A program made the position numbers and the translations under genes. A model generated the notes under the pieces. It had not been told where the DNA came from. It ran no database searches and saw only the letters and a program-made list of their open reading frames with translations. A stretch of DNA of 64,000 nucleotides, from contig CAWGLD010000005.1 of the NCBI GenBank assembly GCA_963823335.1, forward strand, positions 434,831-498,830, in the 5' to 3' direction. This document shows, in pieces, positions 41,655 to 63,376 of this stretch (position 1 is its first letter; each line of letters opens with the position of its first letter). This DNA comes from an uncultured delta proteobacterium. Lineage in GTDB: Bacteria > Desulfobacterota > Desulfobacteria > Desulfobacterales > B30-G6.

Positions 41655-41662
41655 ATAAATAG

Positions 41663-41734
41663 AACTCAATGAACCCAACAAACTCAATAAACCCAACAAA
41701 CTAAACAAACCCAATGAACCCAATAAACTCAAAA
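41663..41734 (+). repeat. 9-bp tandem repeat x8 (AACYCAAYR) overlapping the sat-cysC start
   Basis: AACTCAATG AACCCAACA AACTCAATA AACCCAACA AACTAAACA AACCCAATG AACCCAATA AACTCAAAA. Confidence 0.9.
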
Positions 41735-43435: not shown

Positions 43436-43509
43436 ATCAATTTTTAATTTTGAGTTTTTAATTTTGAATTGCGGTAGGAGATTGGTGATAGTCTGTATTT
43501 TAATATCTT

Positions 43510-43771
43510 TTAGCCACAGACCCACACAGACATTCACAGACATTTTATTTTTCTCTTCGATCGACTTGATCGAAGAGAACCAATCACTCTATCGCGAAAT
43601 TTAACAAGTCTATGATTCGAGAAACATCAAACTTGCCAGAATGTTATATTGGAATGATCAATAGATAAAAATGCCCGAAGGGCATGATGATTAATCATCG
43701 ATCAAGTCGATCGATGATTGTCTGTGTCAGTCCGTGTGCTCAGGGGGTAAAAGAATGTAATCTGTGGCTAA
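43510..43771. repeat. CACAGAC-unit inverted-arm element (copy b, complete)
   Basis: TTAGCCACAGAC...GACTT-loop hairpin...TGCCC-GAA-GGGCA...AAGTC-loop hairpin...TCTGTGGCTAA. Confidence 0.9.
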
Positions 43772-43786
43772 TAAAAAGGAAAACCA

Positions 43787-44366
43787 ATGAAAAAATACTT
43801 CACCTATATAACCATATTCCTTGCTGTCAGTTTCATCTTTGTCAACACGCACCCGTGTCTTCGCCCAGGAGGAAGCCAAGGACACCTACCTCATCGGCAG
43901 TGGTGACATCCTCGAAATCACCACCTGGAAAGAAGTCGATTTTACCCGGGAGGAAATTCTCGTGCGTCTGGATGGTATGATTACTTTCCCGTTAATAAAT
44001 GACATCCTGGCCAAGGGCCGAACTTCCATGCAGGTAAAGCAGGATATCGAGGAGAAGCTCAAAGATTACGTTGAAAGCCCCATTGTAACGGTTACCGTGC
44101 GGACATCCGGCAGCAAGCGTTTTTACATCCTGGGAGAGGTCGTCAACACCGGTGAATACCCGCTTGTAAAGGGTTTGACGGTTCTGCAGGCCTTTGCTCT
44201 GGCCGGTGGTTTCACCGAGTGGGCTTCTAAAAAAGAAATCATCCTCATGCGTAACGAAGACGGCCAGGAAAAGATATTCCGTGTCAATTACAAGGACATC
44301 ATCAAAGGCAAAGACACCAGTCAGAACATCAAAATTCAGCCCGACGACACCATAATCGTGCCGTAG
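43787..44366 (+). CDS. Polysaccharide export protein (Wza/Poly_export-SLBB); signal peptide out of frame (indel near 43850)
   Basis: YLIGSGDILEI, VRLDGMITFPLI, GEVVNTG, ALAGGFT, QPDDTIIVP. ATG 43787 after AAAGGA encodes MKKYFTYITIFLAVSFIF in a different frame. Confidence 0.85.
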
Positions 44367-44398
44367 GGTAGGTTATGAAGCATAATGATCTTCTATAT

Positions 44399-44673
44399 TT
44401 AGCCACGAGCAGGATATACAGAAATTTATATTTATTTATTCGAGGACTTGATCGAATAAAAACAATCATCGCTTCGCGAAAGCAAACCAAGATTCTAATA
44501 AACCTATGATTGTAGAAACATCAAATTTGTCGGAGAATTTTCTTGAAATGATAAAAGATTTTAAGTTGCCCAAAGGGCATGAGATTTAATCATCGATCAG
44601 GTCGATCGATGATTGTCTGTGTCGGTCCGTGTACCCCTCAAGGGGGTAGTATACAGAATGTGTCTGTGGCTAA
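44399..44673. repeat. CACAGAC-unit element (copy c, left arm degenerate)
   Basis: TTAGCCAC...CGCTTCGCG...TGCCC-AAA-GGGCA...AGGTC-loop hairpin...GTCTGTGGCTAA. Confidence 0.85.
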
Positions 44674-44708
44674 ATATAAAGAACTTGAGCTTTTGTGGTG
44701 AAAAAAAC

Positions 44709-46026
44709 ATGAACTGTAAATCGATCTTTTTTGTCTTGCTCTTCCTGATAATATTATTGCCGATATCGTATTCGGCTGCATATCAGGTAACGTTTCAACC
44801 TCGCTTGACCTTAAGAACCGAATACACGGACAACCTTGAAAGGGAAAACAATAACGAGAAGGATGACATCATCACCACCGTGTCTCCGGGCTTTACCCTT
44901 TCCGCTTTCGGACAAACACAGGGCCTCAACCTGGCTTACGACCCGGCCTATGCCTGGTACCGGGATAATTCGAAATATAACTCACCGCGGCACACAGTCA
45001 ACCTGGGTATCTGGAAACAGGCCACCCGCAACACCCGGCTCTACATCAATGACGCTTTCTTCTACACCGAAGACCCCGGGGTGGAAGATTTCAACACCGA
45101 TGCCGAAGACCGGCGGGGTCGGGAACCCTACTACACGAACACCGCCACCGTGGGCATGACCAACCAGTTCGGGCCATCGGATGTTGTTACCCTGGAGTTC
45201 AACCGCCGGGCCTTGGTAAATGACGACGACACCCAGGATGACTCCTTTGAAAACAATCCCACGGCCTCGCTGACCTACTACCCCTTTCGAAACTTTGGAA
45301 CGGAAACGAACGTTTCTTTCAGTCAGACCGATTTTGACAACAACGATAAAAACGTTCAGCCGGCGGATGATTTTGAAAATTACTTTGGCTCGATTCGCCT
45401 GATCCAACGCCTGTCGCGAACGTTCAGCACGTTCGTGGGTTACAGCTATACACTCATGGATTATGTGGATAATGAAGACGCAAACTATGAACTGCACTAC
45501 CCCAACATCGGTTTTTCCTATGAAAGGGAAGATATCGCGAACATCAATGTCAGTGCAGGCTACCTGATAATAGACCGTGAAAAGGAAACCGAGGGTTTGG
45601 AAGATGATAAGCGCTTGCAGGTCAATGGCAGATATCAGCAGGGTCTGGCAATTTCGTACAGCTTCCTTAAGCGTCACGGGTGCCAGCGGTTACGATCAGC
45701 CTTCCTTTGACCAGGATGATTTGGGTTTGCGCATTTATTATGACGCCACTGCTGTCTTCAATCACGAGTTCCTGCGGGACATCAGTTATGAAATAAACGG
45801 CGGTTATCGATTGGATCATTACATCGATATCAACCCGGAAAGAAAAGATAAAACAAGCACGGCAGGTGTCGGCCTCATATTCAGCCGTGTCGAATTTATG
45901 ACCACCAGAATCGACTATGCTTACCGAAATGTGACCTCCGACGAGACAGAAGAAGAATACACCGAAAATCGCGTTTCCTTCACCATTATCCTGACACCCC
46001 GTAATCCGATTTATCTGAAACGATAA
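44709..46026 (+). CDS. EPS-associated outer-membrane beta-barrel protein, frameshifted near 45630
   Basis: Signal peptide, PRLTLRTEYTDN, DDIITTVSPG, C-terminal YTENRVSFTI; split over ORFs ending at 45710 and 46026. Confidence 0.75.
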
Positions 46027-46089
46027 ATAGGATAAAATTTAAGGGTCTTGGACTAGAGACAGAGCATAAATAGTTAGCCTAGAGCTCTT

Positions 46090-47430
46090 GTCTGATGGAT
46101 AGCGTGGCAATAATAGCCTTGTATATCTGGTTTTAAAAAGCATTATCGTGTTAACCAATGGAGCCGATCAATTTGCGCATGGTAAAAGTCACATTAACGG
46201 TATTGAATCGTTTTGGGCCTTTGCCAAAGGTAGGCTAACCGAGTTCCGCTGGAATTGGTGATTCTACTGTTCTATTTACATTTAAAAGAATACGGACCTA
46301 TAAACAATAAAAAGGCTAAACAGCTGTTCTTACGTACAGGCGAAAGTAAAAAAGCTACAATTCTGAGTTCGACGTATCTGTCTTCCGCCAGCAAAAGACA
46401 ATAATGCATGAAATATCTCAATGGTCGGTTTGGGTTTCATGATTACTTTGTTTTTACCTTTTTTCTTAATAGTTCGTGCGGGAACTCTATGTTCCCAGCG
46501 AAACTCAAATTCATGCAAATATCGATGCAAGTGGCTCTGGCTTAGATAATGGAAGACACCTTGCTTTGCACGTTCAAGGAGAGCACCAAAAGATTCGGCT
46601 GTATTGATATGTACCGAGTCTCTTACATATTCTTTTTGGCCGTGTGATACTGTTAAATGTGATGCATGTTGTTGACCGATCTTTCGATACGACAGATGAC
46701 CGTCAGTCATCAAATTTGAATCGGTATCAATCCACATTTCAGTCACCGGCTGGATTTGATCGATACTATCATTAACAATTGGAACGGCCCGTACCGAGCC
46801 ATTTCGCTCTGCGGCTACCAGTACTCATTGTTTTTGAGTACCTCGACCGCGTTTATGAGTCAAACCTTGTTGGTAGCGGGGTTTACCCCCAAAATAGGTT
46901 TCGTCTACTTCGACGATACCGCTTAACTTACGAACCTGGTCGGGTGCCATCATGGTTCGAATGGCATGCCCCATCCTCCATGCGGTCGGCTGGGAGACAC
47001 CGATCCATCTGGATAGCACAACCGAGGAGATACCCTTGCTGGAGCAGACGATGTAATAAATGGCCTGCAACCATTTCCACAAAGGCAGTTTGGTACTATG
47101 AAGCGGCGTGTGTGTCGTAACCGTGAAATGGCTTTTACATCGGGCACATTCGTATAGCCCCTGGCGTACGGATTGTCCTTGTAAATGATAGGACTTTTCA
47201 CATTTACAATGTGGGCAAACACGTCCGTCAGCCCAGATGATGGATTCGAAAAATTGGCGACATGCTGCTTCATTTGGTAATTGTTTTCTAAGTTGGTCAA
47301 TGTTCATCGCTTACCTCCTTGTGGTTTGGAGGAAAGCATATCAGATGCGTTTGACAGATACGGTCACAACTATCCTACTTTTTGTTTGTAGGTCCGAAAG
47401 AATATGAGTTTAGGTTTAATCACCGCAAAA
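46090..47430 (+). pseudogene. Older IS1595-family transposase remnant, interrupted by a second IS
   Basis: KKHYRVN...SHINGIESFWAFAKGRL...FYLHLKE left of 46292 resumes as (KEY)EFRFNHR right of 47397. Confidence 0.75.
46293..47396 (-). mobile_element. IS1595-family element (1104 bp) with 8-bp TSD; transposase has one in-frame TGA
   Basis: TIRs CGGACCTATAAACA / TGTTTGTAGGTCCG; AAAGAATA at 46285-46292 and 47397-47404. Zn ribbon CPHC..CARC, VEVDETY, MTDG, HINTAES, YLHEFEFRW; ORFs 47307-46825 and 46746-46330 are in frame. Confidence 0.92.
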
Positions 47431-47559
47431 AGGAATAAATGCCATCATCTCTGGCGCTTCCTCCCAGGCGACCTTACGCATCAAGTTGGGGCTGTGAAGG
47501 GTTGGAATAACCGACGAGGTTCAATCGTGGCATCTGTCGAATACCCCCTTGATCACCGA

Positions 47560-47730
47560 TGTTAAAGGTCGAAGCTTCTGGAAGAAGCATCAATCGAATC
47601 GGGTCCGTCCTGAAATGTTCAACACGGATTCTAGATGCTCAGTTCACGAGTAGGTGCATTCACCGATGTTTCGACCAATGTCATAACCTCAAAATCAGCA
47701 CGGACGGTCGAGGCCGGGTTGAGGTCTCTA
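47560..47730 (+). pseudogene. IS3-family integrase-core fragment
   Basis: Mosaic of frames gives FNTD..AQFTS..FT....KISTDGRGR, resembling the IS3 NTDQGSQFTS...ISMDGKGR motif. Confidence 0.55.
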
Positions 47731-48033
47731 CCTTCATTTAACTACTCACCACATGAGTAATGCGGCAGCAGTTCCATTGCAAGCGCACTACCTACTTAAT
47801 ATGTAACTACGGCGTTGCTATCACAATGATTAAGTAGTTTTTCTCCCAATCTATATCTCTTATTATTCATACCCTGTTTTTAGATAGCTGTAATTATTCA
47901 CAATATATTCTTTTCACACGCTGCACGCTTAATTGTCATCCAATTTCACAGTGTCTATAAGCCCCATATGACTTCGGTGTCGCAATGATATGTGTTTGTC
48001 AATGCTAACTGACATCAGTGAAAATGAGGAAAA

Positions 48034-48664
48034 ATGAATAAGCTAGGCATTTTAACGAAGTGTGTTTTTATTAATTGCAGGGATTGCAGGACACTGCTGC
48101 CGCATTACCAATACTCCTAACTATAATTAGAACGGCAGCAAGCGTTGCTTTGTAGGATGTGAACGAATTATGGTATTGACTTAGCGCAAACATGACTCAT
48201 ATCTGGTCGGACGCCGTCCCTCCTTGAGGCGTACACCTTCTCTTTTGTTATTAGATGAAGGGGACAGTGATACACTTGACTAGATAGACTTTACCCGTTC
48301 GCCAACCTAGTTATGTTGGATAGGATGGATACGCTAGAGTTGAGGCAATTAGGCCTTTATTCGAACCTCCAGGTTGCTGATCGTTGATTGGGACTTGGGA
48401 AGCATATTATGGTCATATTTTTGAGACATTTAAAGCCAGTAGTTTGCCATTGGCTGCCTGTTTCCTCGTCATCTATCTTGCTGATGAGCTGCCACTTTGA
48501 TGTATCGTCCCATGCTACGCTGCAGTTAGGTTTAATATATGTGTGACACTACCATTACATCTAAAGTAACCTTTGGCGTTCCCGAACCAGCATCCATGTT
48601 TCTCCTGGTACTGGTCCCACCTGGTTTGGCAGTAATTGGCAGAAAAAAGTTATTCAAAAAATAA
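48034..48664 (+). pseudogene. Disrupted PEP-CTERM protein gene
   Basis: Signal-like start MNKLGILTKCVF after GAGG; near 48578 VPEPASMFLL..., then in a shifted frame GLAVIGRKKLFKK-stop; no continuous ORF. Confidence 0.6.
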
Positions 48665-48708
48665 TAAAATCGTTCAATCGGTTTTATTGATCGTGACTTT
48701 GTCATTCT

Positions 48709-48743
48709 TAAAGAACCCGCTCTACAAAGAGCGGGTTCTTTTT
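48709..48743 (+). terminator. Rho-independent terminator (potentially bidirectional)
   Basis: AAAGAACCCGCTCT-ACAA-AGAGCGGGTTCTTTTT. Confidence 0.85.
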
Positions 48744-48957
48744 GCAAAAAATCCGCTAACTGAAAATTCATAAATGATAATTTTCCGCAGATCTTACCTC
48801 CCAAATATAACCCAAACCGTTTTGCACAACAATTAATAATTCACTTCTGTTAAAATTAATCAAATTTACAAAGTGCCCTTAATGTTTCCCCGACTCTGAT
48901 TTGCCTATGTGACCTATCAGCTCCGAGCTAACAACGACTTCTCACTTTTCCGCATAA

Positions 48958-48972
48958 TGGTACTATAATTGC
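48958..48972 (+). promoter_or_regulatory. Sigma54 -24/-12 promoter of the PEP-CTERM gene
   Basis: TGGTAC-TATAA-TTGC. Confidence 0.7.
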
Positions 48973-49035
48973 GATATACTCATAACAGCTGAAGCGCAAA
49001 GATTGTTGTCAAATATTAAAAATGTAGAGCAAAAC

Positions 49036-49748
49036 ATGAATAAATGCCTAAAAGTTCCGATGATACTTTTTTTGTCTTTATTTTTATTGTCGGGTATATC
49101 GATGGCCACAACTTATACTATCGACGACGTGTATAACGACATTTCCAGGCAGTTGGTTAACCGGTCTTGCGGGCTAGTGACCACAATGGCGTACCCTGAC
49201 ATTGATAGCGCCAGCATCACGGTTGCTGAAGGCGACTATATCACACAGATACAGATCATTGGCAGCCAATTTGACAATTCCATTTTCACGAGCACATATA
49301 CCTACTGGGATTCCCTCTTCATCAATACCAATGAGACGGATCTTCATAATCAGGTAGTGTTGCCGATGGAGCAGGTGGTCAGGTGTGGGACAATTGGGAT
49401 TATTATGTGACCACGCTGAGTGGATCTGCAGCAGGATACAGTGTACCTGTTACTGGCTGGAATTACACCCTTGCCAGTCTGCCAAACTATCGTGATCCGC
49501 ACCCCAATGGATTGACAGGGTACGGTAGCAATGGCCTGGTTGTCGGCTATGCATTGACAGGAAGTGGCGTCACATACGTTTTCACAAACGGCGGCTCATC
49601 AGGGATTGCTTATACAGACGGCATTATTTTCGGGTATACGCCTTTCTGTGCGAATGAGGTGTTTCTTGGCTCCGTACCTGAGCCGTCCAACATTTTCTTG
49701 ATAGGAACGGGGTTGTTATGGCTGGTTGCGGTAGGTGTAGGGCGATAA
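49036..49748 (+). CDS. PEP-CTERM sorting-domain protein, frameshifted
   Basis: Signal peptide in ORF 49003..49410; ORF 49383..49748 ends TPFCANEV..SVPEPSNIFLIGTGLLWLVAVGVGR. Confidence 0.8.
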
Positions 49749-49940
49749 GCGCTATTTCAAAATAAAAACGTGCTTTGCAGGTTTTTATGGAGTTCGCGCT
49801 TTGCCACTTTAAAATATCATTCTGAAAAAACCATGCTTCCTGCGTTATCGGGTGACGTGGGTTGCCTCTCAATAAAACGTCTGCTCTTTATTGTCAAGAG
49901 TGGGCGTTTTATTTGGGTTCCTGGTGCACGAAGAGAATTT

Positions 49941-50297
49941 TTAGCCGCAGACGTTCGCAGACAATTACATACATTTCTTCGGACGACTTTGTCCGAAGAA
50001 AAACAATCTTCGCTATCGCGAAATATTCATACCTCATTATAAATGGTATTATTGTATACTCCGGCAACAAAAAATACCAACCTCGTCAGGCCGGGCTTGA
50101 TCCGGCATCCAGCCTTTTTCTATATTCCTGCCTTCGCAGGAATGACAACCGTTGGGATGTTTAATTGCCACATTAATAACATTTCAAAGAGCTGTAATGG
50201 ATGAGTAGAATTGTAATATATATGATGAATGATAAAGTGCCCGTAGGGCATTGAAGTGAAACTTCGACCATATCGGTCGAAGATTGTCTGCGGCAAA
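49941..50297. repeat. C(G)CAGAC-unit element (copy d) with a nested REP
   Basis: TTAGCCGCAGAC...TTCTTCGGAC-GACTTT-GTCCGAAGAA...TGCCC-GTA-GGGCA...CTTCGACC-ATATC-GGTCGAAG.TTGTCTGCGGCAAA. Confidence 0.85.
50085..50146. repeat. GTCA...GGAATGAC-type REP pair nested in copy d
   Basis: GTCAGGCCGGGCTTGATCCGGCATCCAG ... TTCCTGC-CTTC-GCAGGAA-TGAC. Confidence 0.7.
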
Positions 50298-50621
50298 AAG
50301 AAACACGAACCTTCAGCCAGTAACTATATCCCATAGAAATTAAAATTCAAAATTAAGAAATCAAAATTGATTGATAGCCTTCAGGCAGCTTATCAGCCAA
50401 CTCTTCGGTACTGATTGTGTAACATTATTCATATCTATGAAGTTTACCTTCTATGGCAGACGTATCTGGCGACGAAGGCGTAAAAAATAAATTGTGAAAC
50501 GATTATATGTCTGTATTTTTATGCCCAAATATGGTATAGAAATTAACAATTTGCATATATAGCCACAATATGTAGTGTTTTTACCTTTTGGGGTTACAAT
50601 TAATTTTGAAAAAAAATATGT

Positions 50622-50636
50622 TGGTATGTTAGTTGC
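50622..50636 (+). promoter_or_regulatory. Sigma54 -24/-12 promoter of the sugar-synthesis operon
   Basis: TGGTAT-GTTAG-TTGC. Confidence 0.65.
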
Positions 50637-50865
50637 TTTAGTTTAGGCTGAATTTGACGCTATCTCAGCAGTGTAATAGCAATCGCCAAAATCACACACT
50701 AATAAATAAAAAGTTATAATAACAGCATATTAAACGAATGTGTCAATGTAATTGACCAGGCGGAGCTGTGTGTGCGCTGCTCATTTTGTTCGCAGCGCAC
50801 ACAGGTCATAGCTGATAGCTCATAGGCTGTAGGAAATAAGCTGAGAGGAAAGAGGAGTAAAGGAC

Positions 50866-51012
50866 TTAGATTTTCCGAGATGAGTTTCGCATTCGTTGCT
50901 GCAAATATTAAAGAAGAAAACCTGGCTACAAGAAGAGCATTATAAAAGCCTGTACGATGATGCTACCGAAATTAATAAAATGATTTCTGGCTTAATCAAT
51001 TCAATCCAATAG
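50866..51012 (+). pseudogene. Four-helix-bundle protein C-terminal remnant
   Basis: LQEEHYKSLYDDATEINKMISGLINSIQ-stop parallels YLKDENYNHIEEECKIISGMLGSLIK of 53761..54120; bracketed by heptamer arrays. Confidence 0.65.
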
Positions 51013-51136
51013 TGAGACTTTTTATCCCCATGATTTTCAGCTCCTAAAAGCAGCAAACTCCTATGAGTTGATGCGCGCCAGCGCATCATTAAATTCTAAC
51101 ACCTAAATCCTATCAGCTATCAGCTATGAGCTGCGA

Positions 51137-52318
51137 ATGGAGTTGCAAATGCAAGTGCCATTTCTTGATTTAAAGGTGCAGTACCGGCAAATAGAAAATG
51201 AAGTATTGCCCATGATCCAGGATGCCATGGCGAACGGTATGTTCATCGGTGGGCCACAGGTTTCCGGCTTCGAGGAAGAATTCGCAGCTTTCTGCGACAC
51301 CCGATTCTGCGCCGGCGTCAACTCCGGCACCGACGCCCTGCGGTTTGCCCTCATGGCGCTGGGAATAGGACCGGGAGACGCCGTCATCACCGTGCCCAAC
51401 ACCTTCATCGCCACCACCGAGGCCATATCTCAAGTCGGCGCCAAACCCGTGTTCGTGGACATCGACCCTCATACCTGCAACATGGACCACAATATGCTCG
51501 AAGCGTGCTTCGAGGGGCAGGCACAAGGCGCAAGGCACAAGGATCGTCTCACGTCTCACACCTCACATCTCACGACCAGGCCCAAGGCAGTGATGCCAGT
51601 CCATTTGTATGGTCAGCCGGCGGATATGGACCCAATCCTTGGCTTCGCTGAAAAATTTGGTTTGAAGGTCATCGAAGATGCCTGCCAGGCTCACGGTGCC
51701 ACGTACAAGGGGCGAAAAGCCGGTTCCATGGGATCTGCCGGTTGTTTCAGTTTCTATCCGGGAAAAAATCTGGGCGCCTTCGGCGAAGGCGGGTGCCTGG
51801 TTACAACCGAGGAAAAGACATTGCCGTCACGATCAAGATGATCCGCGATCACGGTCAGGCCCAGAAATACTTTCACGACATGGAAGGTTACAACGGCCGC
51901 CTGGATGCCATACAGGCCGGGGTGCTGCGCATCAAGCTGAAAAGACTGGCGGCCTGGAATCAGAAACGACAGAGAAAATGCCAGGTATTATGACGCTTTG
52001 CTGGCGGATGTACCAGAGGTCACTGTGACCCATGAAGCGAAAGACAACGTCTCCGTGTATCACCTTTACGTCATCCAGGTGGATGATCGTGATGCACTGC
52101 AGCGGTTCTTGAGCGAAAAAGGGATTGCCACAGGCCTGCATTATCCATTGCCGTTACACCTGCAAAAGGCCTATGCGCACATGGGACATAAAAAAGGTGA
52201 TTTCCCGGTAACGGAACGAATCGCCGATCGCCTGCTCTCGCTGCCCATGTTCCCCGAGCTGACCCACGAACAGATGGATTACGTGGTCGATTCGATAAAA
52301 TCGTTTTTGGGAAGATGA
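51137..52318 (+). CDS. DegT/DnrJ/EryC1/StrS aminotransferase (WbpE/WlbC-like), two frameshifts near 51812 and 51972
   Basis: VPFLDLK, NSGTDAL, PVHLYGQ, EDACQAHG, SFYPGKNLGAFGEGG; RDHGQ..GYNGRLDAIQA; HYPLPLHLQ, LSLPMFP spread over three frames. Confidence 0.88.
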
Positions 52319-52346
52319 TTTATTATTTGGCGAGACAAGGCGCAAG

Positions 52347-52568
52347 CGCAGACAATTACTTGTCTTCGATCGAGGTCGAAGTAGAAATCTTGCTGCGAAG
52401 TATGCAACCGGTGTTTGGCACCATTATCACTAAACAGTTAGATTGAACATATGAAAGTAATGGCAGCTTGGAAGGCATAAAGAGAATAGGCAAGTATATT
52501 TTGCTCAAAGGGCATGATATGATCTTCGACCATGTCGGTCGAGGATTGTCTACGTTGTCTGCGGCAAA
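52347..52568. repeat. C(G)CAGAC-unit element (copy e, degenerate left arm)
   Basis: CGCAGACAATTAC..CTTCGATCGAGGTCGAAG ... TCTTCGACC-ATGTC-GGTCGAGGA.TGTCTACGTTGTCTGCGGCAAA. Confidence 0.75.
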
Positions 52569-52611
52569 TATCGCCCAACACCTTACGCTCTCACAATTAA
52601 GGAGAACTTTT

Positions 52612-53622: not shown

Positions 53623-53624
53623 CG

Positions 53625-54167
53625 GTGTAAGGTGTAGGGTATAAGGTTATTAGGTAAATAATGGTGTTAGGTTTATGATGGGGTTCGCAGTAAAAGGCTT
53701 AGTGGGGAGCGCATAAGGTGATTGTTCAAAAATTGAAAACAAGAGTGAATAGGATTAAGATTGGGTAAGTTTCAGGAATTGAATGTATGGAAGCGAGCTA
53801 AAGACCTAGCAGTTTACACTTATAAAATATCGGATGAAGGAAGATTCGCAAAAGACTTTGGTTTAAGGGATCAAATGAGGCGAGCGGCTGTGTCAATCTC
53901 CAGCAATATCGCTGAAGGCGATGAGCTCGATACAAATAAACAAGCGATCAGATTTTTTTATATCGCAAAAGGTTCAGCCGCTGAATTACGATCACAGGCC
54001 ATTATCGCAGCGGAAATCGGTTACCTTAAAGATGAGAATTACAACCATATTGAAGAAGAATGTAAAATAATATCCGGTATGCTCGGTAGCCTTATCAAGG
54101 CAAGAGCAAAACATAACTGACAACCCACCAACAAATCCATACACCATATATCTTATACCCTATACCT
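53625..54167. repeat. Inverted heptamer arrays bracketing the four-helix-bundle gene
   Basis: Left GGTGTAA GGTGTAG GGTATAA GG (53625-53647); right CCATACA CCATATA TCTTATA CCCTATA CC (54138-54166). Confidence 0.75.
53761..54120 (+). CDS. Four-helix-bundle protein (23S rRNA IVP / TIGR02436-type family)
   Basis: FQELNVWKRA, FGLRDQMRRAAVSISSNIAEG, IAKGSAAELRSQ. Confidence 0.92.
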   Translation: MGKFQELNVWKRAKDLAVYTYKISDEGRFAKDFGLRDQMRRAAVSISSNIAEGDELDTNKQAIRFFYIAKGSAAELRSQAIIAAEIGYLKDENYNHIEEECKIISGMLGSLIKARAKHN

Positions 54168-54641
54168 ATGACCCCTTTAAAAAAAATATCTGAAGATGTA
54201 AAACTTGGTGAGAACGTTACGATTCAGGAATTTACGAATTTATACGGCTGCACCATCGACGATGACACCCGTATTGGCCCCTTTGTCGAGATCCAGAAAA
54301 ACGCCCACATCGGCAAACGTTGCAAGATCCAGAGTCACACCTTTATCTGCGAAGGCGTCACCATCGAAGACGATGCATTTATCGGCCACGGTGTCATGTT
54401 CATCAACGACAAATACCCCGGTTCCGTAAACGAAGCCGGCGAGCTCCAGACCGAAGCCGACTGGGTAGTGGTCCCCACGGTGGTGCAAAAGGGTGTCTCC
54501 ATCGGCTCCAATGCCACCATCATGTGTGGCATCACCATTGGAGCGAAAGCCATCATCGGTGCCGGCAGCGTGGTCACCAAGGATGTTCCGTCTAAAGCCA
54601 TTGTCGCTGGGAATCCGGCGAAGGTTATCCGTAAGATCTAA
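54168..54641 (+). CDS. Hexapeptide-repeat N-acetyltransferase (WbpD/WlbB-like)
   Basis: NLYGC.I, IGPFVEIQKN, GHGVMFIND, IGAGSVVTKDV, GNPA. Confidence 0.9.
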   Translation: MTPLKKISEDVKLGENVTIQEFTNLYGCTIDDDTRIGPFVEIQKNAHIGKRCKIQSHTFICEGVTIEDDAFIGHGVMFINDKYPGSVNEAGELQTEADWVVVPTVVQKGVSIGSNATIMCGITIGAKAIIGAGSVVTKDVPSKAIVAGNPAKVIRKI

Positions 54642-54644
54642 TTT

Positions 54645-55019
54645 TTTGCCGCAGACACACGCAGACATCCACGGACATTATCTCTGTCGACTTGACAGAG
54701 ATAATACTTCCATGCCCTTCGGGCATATACTTCACACTTAAACAATCTCTCTGGAAAGACGGTTAATATCTGAACCGAAAAAGCGAGCGCATTCCCCTTC
54801 ACTTCGTGAATGAAGGTATTTTCAAATAATAGTTACAACATGATACGCCAATGTTTCCAGATCGCTATTACCTTAGTTGAGGTTTTTGTAACGCAATATG
54901 AATGCGTTTTAGAGTATTAAAATAATATTTAAGTCAAAAGTGGATTTTATGCCAGAAGGGCATGATAGTTGATCTTCGGCCATGTCGGCCGAAGATTGTC
55001 TGCGTTCGTCTGCGGCAAA
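54645..55019. repeat. C(G)CAGAC-unit element (copy f)
   Basis: TTTGCCGCAGAC..ATTATCTCTGTC-GACTT-GACAGAGATAAT..ATGCCC-TTC-GGGCAT ... ATCTTCGGCC-ATGTC-GGCCGAAGAT..GTCTGCGGCAAA. Confidence 0.88.
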
Positions 55020-55035
55020 ATATAAATGAACCATC

Positions 55036-55500
55036 ATGCGTGATTCTTCAGCTAAACATGAGATGAACATTAACGACGTCACTTATAAAATCAATGGAGC
55101 CATATTTGAAGTCAATCGTGTTCTTGGGTCTGGTTTTATGGAGAAAGTATATGAAAATGCACTGCTTATCGAATTACGGAAACTCGATCTGAGAGCAGAA
55201 AATCAGGTTCCTGTTGATGTAACATACAAAGGCCAAAACGTAGGGGAGTATGTAGTTGATATTTTGATTGAAGATAAGGTCATTGTTGAGCTCAAGGCCG
55301 TTGAAAAGCTGACAAAGCTGCATGAAGCACAATTACTGAACTACCTGAAAGCAACCGACATCAAAGTTGGATTATTGGTTAATTTCCACGGGAAAAAAGC
55401 AAATATCAAGCGAATGGTTTTCAATATGCCCGCAGGGCATGGGAGTGAATCTTCGGCCAGGTCGGCCGAAGATTGTCTGCGTCCGTCTGCGGCAAAATAA
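55036..55500 (+). CDS. GxxExxY protein (PD-(D/E)xK-like), C-terminus extended by a repeat arm
   Basis: LGSGFMEKVYENAL, DILIEDKVIVELK, HEAQLLNYLKAT, GLLVNF. Confidence 0.92.
   Translation: MRDSSAKHEMNINDVTYKINGAIFEVNRVLGSGFMEKVYENALLIELRKLDLRAENQVPVDVTYKGQNVGEYVVDILIEDKVIVELKAVEKLTKLHEAQLLNYLKATDIKVGLLVNFHGKKANIKRMVFNMPAGHGSESSARSAEDCLRPSAAK
55426..55496. repeat. Right arm only (copy g), inside the GxxExxY 3' end
   Basis: ATGCCC-GCA-GGGCAT..AATCTTCGGCC-AGGTC-GGCCGAAGATT-GTCTGCGTCCGTCTGCGGCAAA. Confidence 0.88.
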
Positions 55501-55506
55501 AAATAA

Positions 55507-56367
55507 ATGAAAAACAACTATTCCAGAATAACGATATTCATCATCCTATGCCTCTTATCAGGCGTCATCTTTTATCGTGAAGCCCTAACCCAAGTCTTCA
55601 CCACCGTAATCCACAGGGATGGAAGCTCCCACGGTATCTTTGTCCCATTTCTGTCCATCTACTTTCTGTGGTTCAAATTCGACACCCTGAAGACCATCGA
55701 CCTCAAAACCGATCCCCGGGGCGTGGGTCTCATGCTGGTGGGATTGTTTTTTGCGGTGTTCAATATAGGCACCTTTCACATCCGGTTCATCGCCTACATC
55801 CTGGTCATCGCCGGGCTTGTCATGCTCATACTGGGGAGAGACATGTTCAAGCATACGGCATTTCCGTTGTTCTTTCTCATTGCAGCCGTTCCTATTCCCG
55901 AGACCCTTTACGAGACCCTGGCCAATTACTCGCGTCACATTGCCTTCGGCGGATCCCTCAAGATCATTTCCTTTTTAGGTATTCCATATTTCAAAGAAGG
56001 GTGGCTGATTCATCTGCACAATGCCTTACTCGAGGTCGCCATTTCCTGCAGCGGCATCCGCTATCTCATCTCCTATTTCGTTTTCGGGATCGCGTATGCC
56101 TACATAACCAGAGAGAACAACTGGAAACGGGCTTTGATCGTGCTGCTGACTATTCCCATATCGCACCTTGCCAGTATCGGGCGGCTGACGATCATTTTTT
56201 TCATGACGCACCATTTTGGCCCATTTTGGTCCCAACACAAACCGCACGTTTTTCTCAGTTGGTGTGTCTTCGCCGTTATCCTTCTGGGTGCCATCGCCAT
56301 CGATCAATATTTCATAAATCGCTCGGAAAACAGGGAACTGGGAAACCTGGAGACTGGGACCAGTTAA
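55507..56367 (+). CDS. Exosortase (EpsH/XrtA-like)
   Basis: SHGIFVP, AVPIP, EVAISCSGIR (Cys), SIGR (Arg), PH (His); multi-TM. Confidence 0.88.
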   Translation: MKNNYSRITIFIILCLLSGVIFYREALTQVFTTVIHRDGSSHGIFVPFLSIYFLWFKFDTLKTIDLKTDPRGVGLMLVGLFFAVFNIGTFHIRFIAYILVIAGLVMLILGRDMFKHTAFPLFFLIAAVPIPETLYETLANYSRHIAFGGSLKIISFLGIPYFKEGWLIHLHNALLEVAISCSGIRYLISYFVFGIAYAYITRENNWKRALIVLLTIPISHLASIGRLTIIFFMTHHFGPFWSQHKPHVFLSWCVFAVILLGAIAIDQYFINRSENRELGNLETGTS

Positions 56368-56381
56368 TAACAAAATTATTT

Positions 56382-56665
56382 TTAGCCACAGACCCACACG
56401 AACCCTCACAGACATTTTATTTATTTCTTCGATCGACTTGATCGAAGAAAAACAATCATCATTATCGCGAAATTTTTCGAGTCTTATAACAAGCTTGTGA
56501 AATACATATAATTCGAATTTTTCAAAATATATCTTCAGAGTGATAAATGTATTCAAAATGCCCGAAGGGCATTGATGGTAATCATCGATCAAGTCGATCG
56601 AAGATTGTCTGTGTCGGTCCGTGCACCCCTCAAGGGGGTGTTATACAGAATGTGTCCGTGGCCAA
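56382..56665. repeat. CACAGAC-unit element (copy h, complete)
   Basis: TTAGCCACAGAC ... TGCCC-GAA-GGGCA ... GTCCGTGGCCAA. Confidence 0.9.
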
Positions 56666-56730
56666 ATAAAAAAGACACGGTTAAACACGTTGTCCTTCAA
56701 TTTATCATGACTGGTCGTAATCATAAAAGA

Positions 56731-57714
56731 ATGAATATTTTAGTCGTCGGTGGGGCAGGGTATATTGGATCGCACATGTGCAAGTGTCTGGCACAGGCAG
56801 GCTACACACCCATAGTCCTGGACAGTCTGGTCTATGGCCATCGTCAGGCAGTCCAGTGGGGACCCTTTGTCAAAGGATCCTTAGACGATGCCGATGTCTT
56901 AAAACACCTGTTCAGAACCTATGACATTGCAGCGGTGATGCATTTTGCCGCCTTCACCTATGTGGGTGAGTCCGTCCAGAACCCGGCCATTTATTACCAG
57001 AACAACGTCGCCGCGACCCTGTCCCTGCTCAATGCCATGGTCGAAGCAGAGGTAAAGAAGTTCATCTTTTCATCGTCCTGCGCCGTCTACGGCGAACCCA
57101 TGCAGATACCCATCAGCGAAGAGCACCCTCTGAACCCCATCAGCCCCTACGGAAGAACCAAGCGCATGGTGGAAGAGATCCTGGCGGATTTCGGAAAGGC
57201 CTATGGGATGTCATCGGTGGCGCTCCGCTATTTCAATGCCGCCGGCGCAGATCCGGACGGCCAACTGGGCGAAGATCACGACCCTGAAACCCATCTCATC
57301 CCATTGGTGCTGCAGGTTGCGCTGGGTCAAAAAGAAGATGTCAAAGTATTCGGCAACGATTACCAGACAGACGACGGCACCTGCATCCGGGACTATATCC
57401 ACATCAACGATCTTGCCTCGGCACATCTGCTTGCCTTGGAGAAACTTCTAAATGGTGATCCCGGCGGAAATTTCAATTTAGGAAACGGCAGTGGCTATTC
57501 CGTCATGGAGGTCATCGACAAAGCCCGCGAAATAACCGGCAAGCCGATACCCTTTGAGATAACACAGCGGCGTCAAGGGGACCCAGCGGTTCTGGTCGGG
57601 TCCAGCAATAAGGCCGTGAGCGAATTGGGCTGGAAACCGCAGTATGCCGAGCTCGACACGATCATCGAACACGCATGGCGCTGGCACAAAACGCACCCGA
57701 ATGGATACACATAG
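56731..57714 (+). CDS. galE: UDP-glucose 4-epimerase
   Basis: GGAGYIGSH, HFAA, SSSCAVYG, YGRTK, LRYFNAAG, GTCIRDYIH. Confidence 0.95.
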   Translation: MNILVVGGAGYIGSHMCKCLAQAGYTPIVLDSLVYGHRQAVQWGPFVKGSLDDADVLKHLFRTYDIAAVMHFAAFTYVGESVQNPAIYYQNNVAATLSLLNAMVEAEVKKFIFSSSCAVYGEPMQIPISEEHPLNPISPYGRTKRMVEEILADFGKAYGMSSVALRYFNAAGADPDGQLGEDHDPETHLIPLVLQVALGQKEDVKVFGNDYQTDDGTCIRDYIHINDLASAHLLALEKLLNGDPGGNFNLGNGSGYSVMEVIDKAREITGKPIPFEITQRRQGDPAVLVGSSNKAVSELGWKPQYAELDTIIEHAWRWHKTHPNGYT

Positions 57715-57745
57715 CTGAAAGGTCGTAGCTGATAGGAAAATCAAT

Positions 57746-58026
57746 TTAGCCACGGACACACACGGACATTCACAGACATTTTATTTATTTCTTCGATCGA
57801 CCTGATCGAAGAAAACCAATCTTCGCTATCGCGAAATAACAAAATCATTGATTGATCTTATGAATACAAAATATCTCAAATATGCCAGGGTATTATTTTG
57901 AAATGATAAAAAGAAAATTGCCCATAGGGCATGGTAGTATTTTCTCTGCCATGTCGGCAGAGGAAATGTCTGTGTCGGTCCGTGTACCCCTCAAAGGGGT
58001 ATTAAACTGAATGTGTCCGTGGCAAA
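57746..58026. repeat. CACAGAC-unit element (copy i, complete)
   Basis: TTAGCCACGGAC ... TTTTCTCTGCC-ATGTC-GGCAGAGGAAA ... GTCCGTGGCAAA. Confidence 0.9.
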
Positions 58027-58049
58027 AGAATAATAAACTGTGTAACTAA

Positions 58050-58424
58050 ATGTCGAAAACAATTCAATTAGAAGAACTTACATACAAGATAAACGGTGCT
58101 ATATATGAAGTGAACAAAGTACTCGGGTCAGGCTTCCTCGAAAAAGTATACGAAAATGCGCTATTCCATGAACTGAATAATCGAGGCATCAATGCAATAT
58201 GCCAAGTTCCAGTCACCGTTGAATACAAGAAGGTGTCTGTCGGAGAATATATAGCAGATATGATTATTGAGGATTCGGTTCTCATAGAAATCAAAGCTAT
58301 AGAGGCATTACAAAAAGTTCATGAAGCACAAATCTTGAATTATTTGAAGGCGACAGGGTATAAAGTCGGTCTTCTGGTGAATTTCACACACCCCAAAGCT
58401 GTTATAAAAAGGTTTGTATTGTAG
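58050..58424 (+). CDS. GxxExxY protein (PD-(D/E)xK-like)
   Basis: LGSGFLEKVYENAL, DMIIEDSVLIEIK, HEAQILNYLKATG, GLLVNF. Confidence 0.93.
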   Translation: MSKTIQLEELTYKINGAIYEVNKVLGSGFLEKVYENALFHELNNRGINAICQVPVTVEYKKVSVGEYIADMIIEDSVLIEIKAIEALQKVHEAQILNYLKATGYKVGLLVNFTHPKAVIKRFVL

Positions 58425-58432
58425 ATTATTTA

Positions 58433-58686
58433 TTAGCCACAGACCCACACGGACATTCACAGACATTTTATTTATTTCTTCGATCGACCTGATCGAAGAA
58501 AACCAATCCTCGCTATCGCGAAATTACCCAGGCCGTTCAGTACGGCTATGAATTAAAAAACTATCAAATATGCCGGAATATTTTATTGAAATGATAAATG
58601 AAAAATTGCCCGCAGGGCATGGATGGTAATCATCGATCAAGTCGATCGATGATTGTCTGTGTCAGTCCGTGTGTGTCCGTGGCAAA
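58433..58686. repeat. CACAGAC-unit element (copy j, complete)
   Basis: TTAGCCACAGAC..TTCTTCGATC-GACCT-GATCGAAGAA ... TGCCC-GCA-GGGCA..AATCATCGATC-AAGTC-GATCGATGATT..GTCCGTGGCAAA. Confidence 0.92.
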
Positions 58687-58714
58687 TAATAATAAGAGTT
58701 GATAAAGGTCTATC

Positions 58715-59122
58715 ATGAGAGTTCTCAAAACTGAAGACATCATTTGCGTTACAAGTAAATACCTGGAAAACAGGGACGATATAACATTTGCCTATCTATT
58801 TGGTAGTTACGCCAAAGGGAATCAGACGCATCTGAGTGACATCGACATAGCCGTATACATGAAATATGATAACCAGGTATTTGAAAAAAAGCTGCAAGTT
58901 CTCAGCGACTTGACAAAAATATTGGAGACAGACGATATTGATCTTGTAATTCTAAACAAGGCGCCCATCTCGCTGTTGACCAAAATACTGGCAAGTAAAG
59001 CTGTATTGATAGACAAGGACCCCCCTGTACGGCATACGTTTGAATCGCTGAAAATGAGAATGGGTTTTGATTTTTCCTTTTTAGAGAAACGAATTTTGGA
59101 ACAGAGGTTCTTAAATGGTTGA
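58715..59122 (+). CDS. MNT nucleotidyltransferase (MntA-type antitoxin of HEPN-MNT TA)
   Basis: AYLFGSYAKG, SDIDIAV, IDLVILN. Confidence 0.9.
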   Translation: MRVLKTEDIICVTSKYLENRDDITFAYLFGSYAKGNQTHLSDIDIAVYMKYDNQVFEKKLQVLSDLTKILETDDIDLVILNKAPISLLTKILASKAVLIDKDPPVRHTFESLKMRMGFDFSFLEKRILEQRFLNG

Positions 59123-59236
59123 CCGGACCCTTATATTGCGGAAACTGTCTGCACTTGAAGAATATTATGAGCAGAATGATTTTTTAAAATTAAAGATGCC
59201 ATCGTGAAACTCATTAAAAAAGAAGGTCAAAATTAG
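59115..59236 (+). pseudogene. Internally deleted HEPN/DUF86 toxin
   Basis: MVDRTLILRKLSALEEYYEQ (typical DUF86 start, overlapping the MNT stop) joined to a C-terminal-like FKIKDAIVKLIKK; no RxxxxH motif. Confidence 0.65.
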
Positions 59237-59251
59237 TGAAGTTGTATTTAA

Positions 59252-59578
59252 CTCACCACAGAGACATTCACTCAGTGGAATACCACTAAAGTGGCCCTCC
59301 TTTGGAGGATTCCACCGGGCAGGAAGAATGCAGAGATGTAATATTTAATCCTTGCCGGGAGATACCGGCAAGGATTAACCAATCTGACTTTCAGGCAATA
59401 AACTATCATTTTGCAATAATCTTAGTTCTTGAGGCATAAATTTCATACCCATGCAGAATATGAAATGTCGTCGAAGGATGTAAATTGCGCAGCGATTTTG
59501 ATAGTGGTTTTTATCGATCGGTATCTCCCGATCGATAAAAAAAGGTCTTCTCTGTGCTCTCTGTTTCTCTGTGGTGAG
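59252..59578. repeat. CACAGAG-unit inverted-arm element (sibling family, complete)
   Basis: CTCACCACAGAG ... TTAATCCTTGCCGG-GAGATA-CCGGCAAGGATTAA ... TTTTTATCGATCGG-TATCTC-CCGATCGATAAAAA ... CTCTGTGGTGAG. Confidence 0.88.
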
Positions 59579-59614
59579 GAAAAATAAATCCTGTAAATCC
59601 TGTCGAATAAGAAA

Positions 59615-60648
59615 ATGCCCGATATACAGATTATAAATCCAATCAAGCACCCTGATTGGGACGCACTACTGGCCACCAATCCAGGAGCCACCTTTTTTCA
59701 TACTTCCGGATGGTGCCGGGTTCTCGCAGAAAGCTACGGCTACAAGCCCCTGTACTTCACGCAGATCGACAACGGCAAGCTGACAGGCCTGCTGGCAGTC
59801 ATGGAGGTAAACAGCCTGCTGACCGGCAAACGGGGCGTGTCCCTGCCGTTTACCGATCACTGCCCGGTCATTGCAAAAGACAGACAAGCCTTCGACGCAT
59901 TGTTCGAATTTGCGGTCGGATTTGGATCGAAACATGGCTGGAAAAACCTGGGTCTTCGCGGGGGGCTTTTTTTTTAAAGAATGAAAAACCTGATGAAACC
60001 TTTTTGACGCATGAGCTGAAGCTCAATTCCGATGAAAATATGTTGCTGGCAACTTTTCGAAGCAGCACCAGACGGAACATCAAAAAGGCCCAAAAAGAGG
60101 GAATTACGGTAAAGAAAAACAATTCCCTTGAAGCTGTCAAGGCTTTTTACCGCCTCAATTGTCTGACGCGAAAGGATCATGGTTTGCCGCCCCAGCCGAG
60201 TTCTTTCTTTGAGCACCTGCACGATCACGTCATCTCAAAAAAAAAAGGTTGGATTTTTCTGGCGCAATATGATGGAAAACCGATTGCCGGTGCCGTATTT
60301 GCTTTTTTCGATGAGCAGGCTATATACAAATATGGCGCATCTGACAAGACATGTCAAACGTTGCGACCCAACAATCTGGTGATGTGGGAAGCCATCAAGC
60401 ATTTTTCAAATAACGGCTGCAGAACATTCGATTTCGGACGCACAGACCTGGACCACAAAGGACTGCTGCAGTTCAAAAGAGGCTGGGGAACAAAGGAAGA
60501 CACCCTTCACTATTACAATTACGATCTGTCCAAAAAACAGTTTGTTACCAAGTACCCCAGAATCAAGACGTCCTATCCCATATTCAGAAACATGCCCATG
60601 CCACTGCTCAAGTTAGTCGGCAGGGTGCTTTACAAGCACATGGGGTAG
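59615..60648 (+). CDS. FemAB-like GNAT protein (EPS/PEP-CTERM-associated), frameshifted at G6-C-T9 (59960-59975)
   Basis: ATFFHTSGW, VSLPFTDHC in the first frame; RRNIKKA, YKYGAS, PNNLVMWEAI, FDFGRT, LLQFKRGWG in the second. Confidence 0.85.
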
Positions 60649-60695
60649 CAATATTTGTGAGATGCAAGACGTGAGACGTGGCGAATGGCCAAAAG

Positions 60696-60894
60696 CCTGA
60701 TCGAAGAAACCCAATCATCGCTATCGCGAAGTAACAAAAGAAATGATTGACCCTATGAGTAAAGAAATATCAATTATGCCAGACTTTCCCAATAGAGTGA
60801 ATAATGGATTAAATTGCCCATAGGCATGGTAGTATTTTCTCTGCCATGTCGGCAGAGGAAATGTCTGTGTCAGTCCGTGTGTGTCCGTGGCAAA
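60696..60894. repeat. CACAGAC-unit element (copy k, left end truncated)
   Basis: CCTGATCGAAGAAACCCAATCATCGCTATCGCGAA ... CTCTGCC-ATGTC-GGCAGAG ... GTCCGTGGCAAA. Confidence 0.85.
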
Positions 60895-60928
60895 AGAAAA
60901 CAGCACTTTAAGCTCAACTGAATTATTT

Positions 60929-60997
60929 ATAGCCACAGACCCACACAGACATTATAATTATTTCTTCGATCGACGTGATCGAAGAAAAACAATCATC
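60929..60997. repeat. Left arm only (copy l)
   Basis: ATAGCCACAGACCCACACAGAC..TTTCTTCGATC-GACGT-GATCGAAGAAA. Confidence 0.85.
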
Positions 60998-61061
60998 AAC
61001 AAATAAAAATTATACTGAAAGAATTGCATATTTATCAAAATAGTTCCCATGAAATTATTAA

Positions 61062-63343: not shown

Positions 63344-63376
63344 ACAGCAGGTAATTTGATTAATGTTATTTTTATT

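Follow-up and report, generated by a model that had tools for sequence, protein, structure and literature searches.

Covarying hairpins with a conserved loop at the two ends of a widespread repeat element that, at full length, includes a small nuclease-like gene

Repetitive extragenic palindromic (REP) sequences, bacterial interspersed mosaic elements (BIME) and REP doublets forming hairpins (REPIN), together with the REP-associated tyrosine transposases (RAYT), make up a system of short hairpin-forming intergenic repeats, often arranged as inverted pairs, in which recognition of the folded strand is presumed. In the attC sites of integrons and the ends of IS200/IS605 elements, structure is kept while sequence varies, and it is the folded single strand that is recognised. 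Moreover, miniature inverted-repeat transposable elements (MITEs), such as Correia or the enterobacterial repetitive intergenic consensus (ERIC), are 150-300 bp long, have inverted ends, lie between genes, are co-transcribed and derive from a longer gene-bearing form. Here, a stretch of 64,000 nucleotides (hereafter, the window) from an uncultured delta proteobacterium of the order Desulfobacterales was analysed (contig CAWGLD010000005.1, forward-strand positions 434,831 to 498,830), in which hairpins mark both ends of a widespread repeat element, the full-length form of which carries a small nuclease-like gene of the GxxExxY type. In the two ends, called the left (L) and right (R) arms, selection keeps a stem of 8-12 bp of almost any sequence, a C-G closing pair and the loop (A/G)-N-G-T-C. 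A search of the literature turned up no description of this arm or element family, and the finding links a strongly covarying nucleic-acid structure to a huge protein family without known function.

Read with the loop as A-N-G-T-C, an arm consists of a small hairpin, a hairpin of 8-12 bp and two or three GTCYGYG heptamers, after which the array ends in GGCTAA or GGCAAA. The small inner hairpin is ATGCCCnnnGGGCAT in R arms and a TCGCGA-type motif in L arms, and the step from one heptamer to the next is exactly 10 nt in 341 of 353 steps. The first heptamer directly abuts the 3′ half of the stem in R arms; an A/T-rich stretch of about 10 nt separates stem and heptamers in the L arms of this genus. 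The two arms face each other in inverted orientation and enclose a conserved core of about 100 nt, the whole element measuring about 290 nt. The complete unit, observed in a relative (locus L014), presents a heptamer array, the L hairpin (GACNT on the gene strand), the TCGCGA-type small hairpin and the GxxExxY gene, followed by the small GCCCnnnGGGC hairpin, the R hairpin (ANGTC) and a heptamer array. Most copies in the window are gene-less miniatures, made up of the two arms and about 100 nt derived from either side of the gene; the L-arm motif and the start-codon region are retained at one end and the GCCCnnnGGGC hairpin at the other, which fits an internal deletion of the gene. Furthermore, the L and R stems of a single unit usually differ, so that each arm pairs with itself; this holds for the relatives and for element E4 of the window, whose L arm (54629-54709, − strand; hairpin 54677-54705, GACTT on the + strand) has the stem ATTATCTCTGTC and whose R arm (54966-55035, + strand; hairpin 54972-54996, loop ATGTC) has the unlike stem ATCTTCGGCC.

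The assembly searched comprised 4.37 Mb, its contigs being named C1-C8 here, with the window on C5. Within the window, 17 hairpins had a perfect stem of 7 bp or more closing the loop A-N-R-T-C or its reverse complement. Across the whole genome, 370 perfect hairpins combined a 5-nt loop with a stem of 8 bp or more, and in 20 of them the loop was A-N-R-T-C or its reverse complement (15 in the window part of C5 and five on C6). Allowing one mismatch and loops of 5-6 nt gave 54 hairpins, of which 30 were followed by a GTCYGYG-type heptamer and the other 24 were unrelated; the 30 comprised 20 window arms, nine arms on C6 and a single one on C2 that looks like chance. A covariance model was built from the genome's own 29 arms; it gave 30 matches in this genome, and all 29 among the matches listed lay on C5 or C6. 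In total, nine different stem types occur among the arms of this genome. The window holds eight L/R pairs, one truncated element, one L arm without a partner and three solo R arms. On C6, the arms are situated between genes of various kinds, including some for nucleotide sugars, and their elements are co-oriented with their genes in two cases, anti-oriented in two and ambiguous in one. An earlier sequence-only reading of the window had quoted six hairpins, which are present letter for letter at 43693, 50262, 55448, 57940, 60835 and 54677, and had placed the family between 43693 and 60862; its actual range is 41601 to 63644. An Rfam search of positions 41000-64000 at E <= 1 returned six weak matches near 48.7 kb, none of them on the arms.

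The same reading had proposed that the stems change in pairs and are selected for structure. Covariation exceeded that of shuffled alignments in the own arms and in those of the relatives. Among the own 29 arms, 96.6% of 290 stem cells paired and two-sided changes occurred in seven of ten pairs, with a covariation score of 0.552 vs. 0.178 ± 0.022 in shuffled alignments (0 of 500 reached it) and at most 0.114 when the partner columns were slid. For the relatives, 150 model matches from 70 sources gave 141 distinct rows, in which 97.4% of 1369 stem cells paired, two-sided changes occurred in ten of ten pairs and the score was 0.772 vs. 0.206 (again 0 of 500), slid controls reaching at most 0.187. 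As this second alignment was fitted to the model, the sets collected without a hairpin requirement matter more. In a set anchored on the heptamers, for which no hairpin was asked, 106 of 138 arrays had an adjacent hairpin, and 82 of these 106 carried the loop AGGTC, AAGTC or ATGTC, in counts that include some overlapping loci and hence some copies twice. Matches in two genomes with the same heptamers and another hairpin (G027 and G109) were left out of the hairpin counts. The proposed selection for structure is supported by the own arms, by the relatives and by the heptamer-anchored and protein-anchored sets, the latter being described below.

Regarding the loop, 110 distinct hairpins presented AGGTC (31), AAGTC (20), ATGTC (16), GAGTC (3), ACGTC (2) and GCGTC (2), together with six 6-nt loops ending in GTC, the rest being scattered variants. 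In 101 distinct hairpins with a 10-bp stem and a 5-nt loop, gathered with a model that already knows the loop, the entropy at loop positions 1 to 5 was 0.43, 1.70, 0.28, 0.27 and 0.19 bits, and that of the outer stem positions was 1.5-1.9 bits. The sequence-only reading had described a fixed loop, A-N-(G/A)-T-C, over changing stems. As regards the loop, position 2 alone is indeed free in the consensus (A/G)-N-G-T-C, but two arms have 6-nt loops, A-N-N-G-T-C. As regards the stems, 62 distinct 5′ stems were found among the relatives, but the C-G pair that closes the loop is conserved at 87-94%, as are the C-G and G-C pairs that form a central CG step. Loop positions 1, 3, 4 and 5 (0.19-0.43 bits) do not show the neutral drift that the sequence-only reading had named as an outcome speaking against it.

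These observations bear on a reading without any function, in which the palindromes are kept by intrastrand template switching or gene conversion and the loop by recent descent. It draws on hybrid stems, such as the R hairpin of element E6 (56580-56606), which combines halves of two stem types and has an A.A mismatch between them, on arm types swapped at orthologous sites of relatives, and on the many near-identical copies found inside a single genome. However, 56 of the 62 distinct 5′ stems carry the [AG]NGTC loop; in different families of the order, the loop and its distance to the gene persist over stems as unlike as GGCCGGCC-rich and CTCTTTC-rich ones; variation within the loop is confined to position 2; and the R arms show strand-biased G.T intermediates that templated correction does not predict. 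An absence of function is considered very unlikely. Template switching may help to keep the stems perfect, and selection on structure plus loop sequence is supported.

Both open reading frames (ORFs) adjacent to arms in the window are GxxExxY genes on the + strand (55036-55500 and 58050-58424), matching TIGR04256 with 148.5 and 140.6 bits, respectively (cut-off 35); the arm-flanked gene had no family match besides this one, which is of unknown function. The first encodes the conserved protein at about 55063-55419, and its open frame continues through the next R arm, which directly follows the gene (55443-55512, + strand; hairpin 55448-55474, AGGTC). The second (124 aa) lies between the R arm of element E7 and the L arm of element E8. 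PF13366 is the precomputed family on homologues of these proteins. In all 25 aligned sequences, G28, E31 and Y34 of the motif and D70, E80 and K82 of the PD-(D/E)XK catalytic D...E-x-K were invariant. The predicted fold is confident (predicted local distance difference test, pLDDT, 92.2), and Foldseek returned weak, generic PD-(D/E)XK matches, including lambda exonuclease, Cas4 and Hjc (best E 5.7e−4); a PDB search with the sequence gave no match. The literature searched on GxxExxY and PF13366/PDDEXK_3 contained nothing on function or repeats, the function being given as 'Unknown'. It is very large, with 5731 relatives at E <= 1e−10 among 5743 candidates scored.

Loci fetched from relatives through their arms often hold a GxxExxY gene. 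Furthermore, 80 loci were fetched by protein similarity alone (52-89% identity), which by record title belong to Desulfobacterales, Geobacter, Syntrophobacterales and others. An R hairpin (at least 7 bp, loop (A/G)N(N)GTC) stood just 3′ of the gene in 22 of the 80, two of these 22 looking spurious, and its loop typically started 36 nt past the last aligned codon. An L hairpin, GACN(T/C), was present 32-58 nt upstream of the start codon in 20 loci; both hairpins appeared in 11, and an R-type arm stood upstream instead in nine. As a control, such a stem was found at one of 264 motif sites inside genes. The hairpins keep a fixed register to the start and stop of GxxExxY in distant genomes. Beside these counts, the over-long N-termini of four homologues (P0018, P0040, P0084 and P0118) were found to be translated heptamer arrays in either orientation, e.g. 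...VSFRVGLWL... and ...ATDPHGPTQT..., an independent sign that metagenomic relatives are array-flanked.

Model matches were found in 26 of 41 close relatives, in 56 of 151 genomes sampled from the order and in 41 of 110 genera. Among genomes with a GxxExxY protein at least 56% identical to that of the window, 13 of 14 had model matches, compared to the 56 of 151 overall, these being counts over related and hence non-independent genomes. As the most likely mechanism, it is tentatively proposed that the unpaired GTC of a folded arm is read by a factor, for which the PD-(D/E)XK protein of the cassette itself is the leading candidate; a loop-reading protein as such is plausible. The arm would fold as a single strand and expose GTC unpaired, the same three letters with which each neighbouring heptamer begins; a sequence-specific factor, for which the best candidate is the PD-(D/E)XK protein docked on the 10-nt-spaced heptamers, would then read GTC; and the cassette ends would be marked or cut, whereby the cassette would be copied, exchanged or kept at intergenic sites. 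A bolder and distinctly doubtful version would make the GxxExxY proteins hairpin-loop-specific endonucleases of single-stranded DNA, which would dock on the heptamers, nick the unpaired GTC and drive the copying or exchange of the cassette. If true, this could explain why polysaccharide loci collect such cassettes and reshuffle there.

According to the sequence-only reading, recognition takes place on DNA rather than mRNA, a claim for which the evidence is divided. In its favour are the exact 10-nt period, which would suit one helical turn of B-DNA, the non-complementary spacers and the occurrence of copies in both orientations in the genome of one relative (G030). In particular, the heptamer positions are 91% alike between L and R arrays and the inner spacers match at 40 of 213 positions (19%), which points to repeated words rather than to a selected duplex. 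On the other side, G.T pairs outnumber A.C pairs on the ANGTC strand of the R arms (30 vs. 10, p = 0.002), which fits a single folded strand and indicates that the R hairpin is selected on the ANGTC strand, also the sense strand of the gene.

That bias also speaks for a reading at the RNA level, held to be possible and somewhat doubtful, in which the element would be co-transcribed with the operon, the paired arrays would provide an outer stem for a double-strand RNase, the hairpins would cap the 5′ and 3′ ends of the released GxxExxY message or of neighbouring messages, and the conserved loops would serve an RNA-binding factor or a loop-loop contact. Consistent with it, element E8, as a single strand of either polarity, adopts a fold in which the two arrays form an outer stem and both hairpins branch off from it (−104.2 kcal/mol as RNA, z = −10.9; z about −10.4 as DNA), the hairpins flank the gene at distances like those of untranslated regions, all window arms share the orientation of the + strand genes of the locus and 15 copies are co-oriented with genes vs. 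six anti-oriented in G030, and a second arm family has exactly complementary L and R loops that differ between two elements. However, one transcript would show the unlike loops GACNU and ANGUC, so that a single reader cannot serve both; loop-loop (kissing) pairing in the ANGTC family was not supported by the free loop position, which gave about seven L-R matches vs. about eight mismatches in a tally by eye; and the lack of complementarity between inner spacers, the B-DNA-like period and the copies in both orientations, including convergent and divergent gaps, in G030 and on C6 likewise speak against RNA, as does the large hairpins not being terminator-like. A promoter and terminator scan of 54500-64000 gave no excess of note over shuffles (22 vs. 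22.0 and 12 vs. 9.4, respectively). In three metatranscriptomes, 5-7% of the words were found, on contigs that are arm-bearing pieces of many loci without usable ends or strand.

The wobble counts touch a further reading, that of a duplex palindromic operator for a dimeric regulator, which would never fold. The dyad symmetry with a 5-bp spacer and the intergenic position would suit such an operator, but the nine stem types in the genome and the 62 across relatives have half-sites that change in compensating pairs, which argues against a base-reading dimer, as this would need fixed half-sites; moreover, the wobble asymmetry indicates a folded strand. An operator of this kind is regarded as extremely improbable.

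The elements occupy nearly every gene junction of the locus, which is of the exosortase polysaccharide type, and their turnover can be followed at sites shared with relatives. Two junctions of the window (44366-44613 and 43436-43820) were compared with loci L132, L138, L141 and L143. Between the polysaccharide-export and beta-barrel genes, a gene-less element is present in this genome and in one relative; in a second relative, the element is joined by a GxxExxY gene and an extra R arm; in a third, the site is occupied by a GxxExxY gene whose words and loop differ, and in a fourth by a four-helix-bundle cassette. The junction of the sulfurylase and export genes carries an element of a different word family (ACAGGAT words) in one relative. 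The gene order around the GxxExxY orthologue also differs between this genome and a congener. The presence of elements at nearly every junction, together with the differing cassettes of relatives, suggests that they may be joints where variable loci are rebuilt.

Several results weigh against recognition of the loop by the cassette's own protein. This genome has only three GxxExxY genes for 29 arms, and one of these genes bears a different arm type. Among 22 genomes with at least five model matches, 12 had no GxxExxY match to this query at E <= 1e−25, including one that is a single contig with 19 model matches, and the model also matches arrays lacking the ANGTC hairpin. The L arms show no wobble asymmetry (G.T 10 vs. 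A.C 7, or 3 vs. 3 when classed by motif), in counts that are soft because 16 of 120 hairpins are classed differently by spacer and by motif (14 R by spacer with the L motif, and two L by spacer with the R motif); these counts are not informative between a symmetric DNA model and a sense-transcript model. The shared orientation of arms and genes also fits an RNA role, and an in-place deletion of a gene needing read-through would yield the same bias. Lastly, G030 has 112 model matches on many contigs, which make up about 38 paired elements in intergenic settings of every kind. Many of them (e.g. L040 and L043) lie within a longer unit whose inverted ends are of the GTGCAC type, and in three of three testable copies an identical TNA triplet adjoins each end of this unit. 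Such an arrangement is suggestive of capture by a conventional vehicle of transposon origin, and the spread in G030 may be the work of another enzyme and owe nothing to the hairpin.

Such a vehicle is central to another, unlikely reading, according to which the arms are non-autonomous and moved in trans by a transposase (a hairpin-reading Y1/HUH or a DDE enzyme), with GxxExxY merely as cargo, like the four-helix-bundle genes of sister elements. Besides the outer inverted repeat and TNA duplication in G030, it is in line with the abundance of arms in genomes without a close GxxExxY, the IS1595 fragments in the locus, the other small genes in sister cassettes, the different hairpin that accompanies the same heptamers in G027 and the eight Y1_Tnp matches in the genome. 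The latter, however, lie on C1, C2, C4 and C7, and no Y1 gene was near an arm among the 29 arm matches listed, all of which are on C5 and C6. The fixed register of the hairpins to the start and stop of GxxExxY in distant genomes is a further point against it, and no target duplication was readable at own-genus elements, the flanks of which are overlaid by remnants of older word repeats.

The remaining arms of the window, which all follow the gene orientation noted above, are given here from 5′ to 3′, with L arms on the − strand and R arms on the + strand. A solo R arm (41601-41670, + strand; 65.2 bits) has its hairpin at 41607-41631 (AGGTC), followed by two GTCTGCG heptamers. Element E1 has an L arm with three heptamers (43494-43583, −; hairpin 43551-43579, GACTT on the + strand; 83.2 bits) and an R arm (43688-43783, +) with the small hairpin ATGCCCGAAGGGCAT, the hairpin 43693-43719 (AAGTC) and heptamers ending in GTGGCTAA. 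Element E2 (44399-44662, +), between the polysaccharide-export and beta-barrel genes, consists of a decayed L arm near 44399-44470 and an R arm at 44583-44662 (hairpin 44588-44614, AGGTC). The L arm of E3 (49925-50006, −) has an 11-bp hairpin with the 6-nt loop AAAGTC on the − strand, and its R arm (50254-50313, +) has the hairpin 50262-50282 (ATATC) and one heptamer. A second solo R arm (52516-52584, +), with the loop ATGTC and one T.G wobble, lies upstream of the oxidoreductase gene. After E4 and the first GxxExxY gene, E6 follows with its L arm at 56366-56455 (−; hairpin 56424-56450) and its R arm at 56575-56654 (+; hairpin 56580-56606, AAGTC, one A.A mismatch). E7 has an L arm at 57730-57819 (−; hairpin 57788-57814) and an R arm at 57935-58015 (+; hairpin 57940-57966, ATGTC, one T.G wobble), and E8 has an L arm at 58417-58506 (−; hairpin 58475-58501) and an R arm at 58623-58702 (+; hairpin 58628-58654, AAGTC). 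E9 (60698-60910, +) is 5′-truncated and retains the 3′ half of the L hairpin (60698-60719), the core and the R arm (60830-60910, hairpin 60835-60861); next to it stands an L arm without a recognisable R partner (60913-60992, −; hairpin 60961-60987, ACGTC on the − strand). Finally, E10 has its L arm at 63361-63450 (−; hairpin 63418-63446; 85.9 bits) and its R arm at 63565-63644 (+; hairpin 63570-63596, AAGTC).

Some arms carry inserts. A small ACCCCTCAAGGGGGT hairpin is inserted within the heptamer arrays of the R arms starting at 44583, 56575, 57935 and 63565; a related insert of about 30 nt splits the pentaloop just 5′ of GTC in at least six hairpins (L012, L016, L020, L021, L134 and L136), and a similar one stands between hairpin and heptamers in many L arms of G030. 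In G027, GTCTGTG heptamer arrays appear 72 times (loci L063-L091) with a different inner hairpin, ACGGCATAT...ATATGCCGT, indicating that the words and the ANGTC hairpin are separable modules. A second arm family, built on CTCTGTG/CACAGAG words, is present in the window at 59247-59600; its hairpins at about 59343-59380 (GAGATA) and 59505-59538 (TATCTC) have different stems and exactly reverse-complementary loops. A related pair, with the loops GGAGACGA and TCGTCTCC, surrounds a GxxExxY gene in a relative (L143), and the third GxxExxY gene of this genome (L003, 14598-14990) uses CACAGAG-type words. In all, two further GxxExxY clades were noted whose loops differ from ANGTC. Moreover, an unrelated dispersed hairpin, AACCGCGTG-CCAAG-CACGCGGTT, has 22 copies with an identical stem on C1, C3, C4, C6, C7 and C8.

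The genes of the locus are those for an ATP sulfurylase/APS kinase, polysaccharide export, a beta-barrel protein, a DegT aminotransferase, an oxidoreductase, a hexapeptide transferase, an exosortase, an epimerase and a FemAB-like protein; interspersed with them are IS1595 fragments as well as genes for the two GxxExxY proteins, one four-helix-bundle protein and toxin-antitoxin-like products. The beta-barrel gene (44613-46026) and the DegT aminotransferase gene (51137-52318) are each divided into two ORFs that overlap or adjoin, a pattern suggestive of frameshifts. The IS1595-type transposase fragments are at 46825-47307 (−) and 61944-62516 (+). Just 3′ of the first solo R arm, at least six tandem 9-nt units (AACTCAATG / AACCCAACA type) at 41663-41738 continue into the beginning of the sulfurylase/APS-kinase ORF. 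At 50802-51133, inverted word arrays of 32 nt, 88% complementary, enclose what is left of a four-helix-bundle gene, and an intact gene of this type (TIGR02436, 53761-54120) is found 2.6 kb downstream of it.

Compared with the described systems, the element behaves like a REP/REPIN-RAYT or an attC-type system, yet the Y1 gene and the foot tetranucleotide that define REP/REPIN-RAYT were not found with it. As in the former, the arms are hairpin-forming intergenic inverted pairs that far outnumber the nuclease-like gene they flank. In contrast to RAYT, a Y1 HUH enzyme, the arm-flanked gene is a PD-(D/E)XK GxxExxY gene, the Y1_Tnp genes of the genome lying elsewhere; and unlike REP, with its 5′-foot tetranucleotide, the conserved letters are in the loop and the closing pair; of the flank columns, the four most distant from the stem have an entropy of 1.77-1.98 bits and the two nearest, T-rich ones, 1.06 and 1.28 bits. 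The two or three heptamers at a 10-nt period and the wide variation of stems within one genome also set the arms apart from REP. With attC sites and IS200/IS605 ends, the element shares a structure conserved over varying sequence and genes separated by sites in an array-like locus; it differs in that its arms are inverted pairs with the same loop and no Y1 transposase stands beside them. Conserved attC core sites were not apparent, and no recombinase match was found among the 14 window ORFs scanned, in a scan that included no IntI-directed search.

The ORF-bearing 23S rRNA intervening sequences (PMC4990558) also have a small gene within inverted arms of tandem short words, and the features of that type, a small ORF and arms able to form a long stem, are found here. 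Further likenesses are the gene-less copies between co-directional genes and the four-helix-bundle cassette at the same intergenic site in one relative. In contrast to the 23S rRNA sequences, the present elements lie between protein genes of a polysaccharide locus, carry GxxExxY instead of a four-helix-bundle gene, have an extra covarying hairpin with a fixed pentaloop and show non-complementary array spacers. A catalogue of 'multicopy nucleotide sequences' in Geobacter describes palindromic and short direct-repeat families in about 12% of intergenic regions, with non-random placement, the main text passages concerned containing nothing on loop conservation, covariation or a GxxExxY link (PMC2996986).

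The miniatures of the window resemble MITEs in their small size, inverted ends and lack of an intact gene, and longer gene-bearing relatives with the same ends exist (L014, the G004 site and 11 of the 80 protein-anchored loci); unlike in MITEs, the gene of the longer form matches TIGR04256 and no known transposase, and the stems covary rather than being simple copies. If the GxxExxY proteins are indeed loop-specific endonucleases that nick the arm hairpin, their pairing with the arms would be the PD-(D/E)XK counterpart of the RAYT/REPIN partnership.

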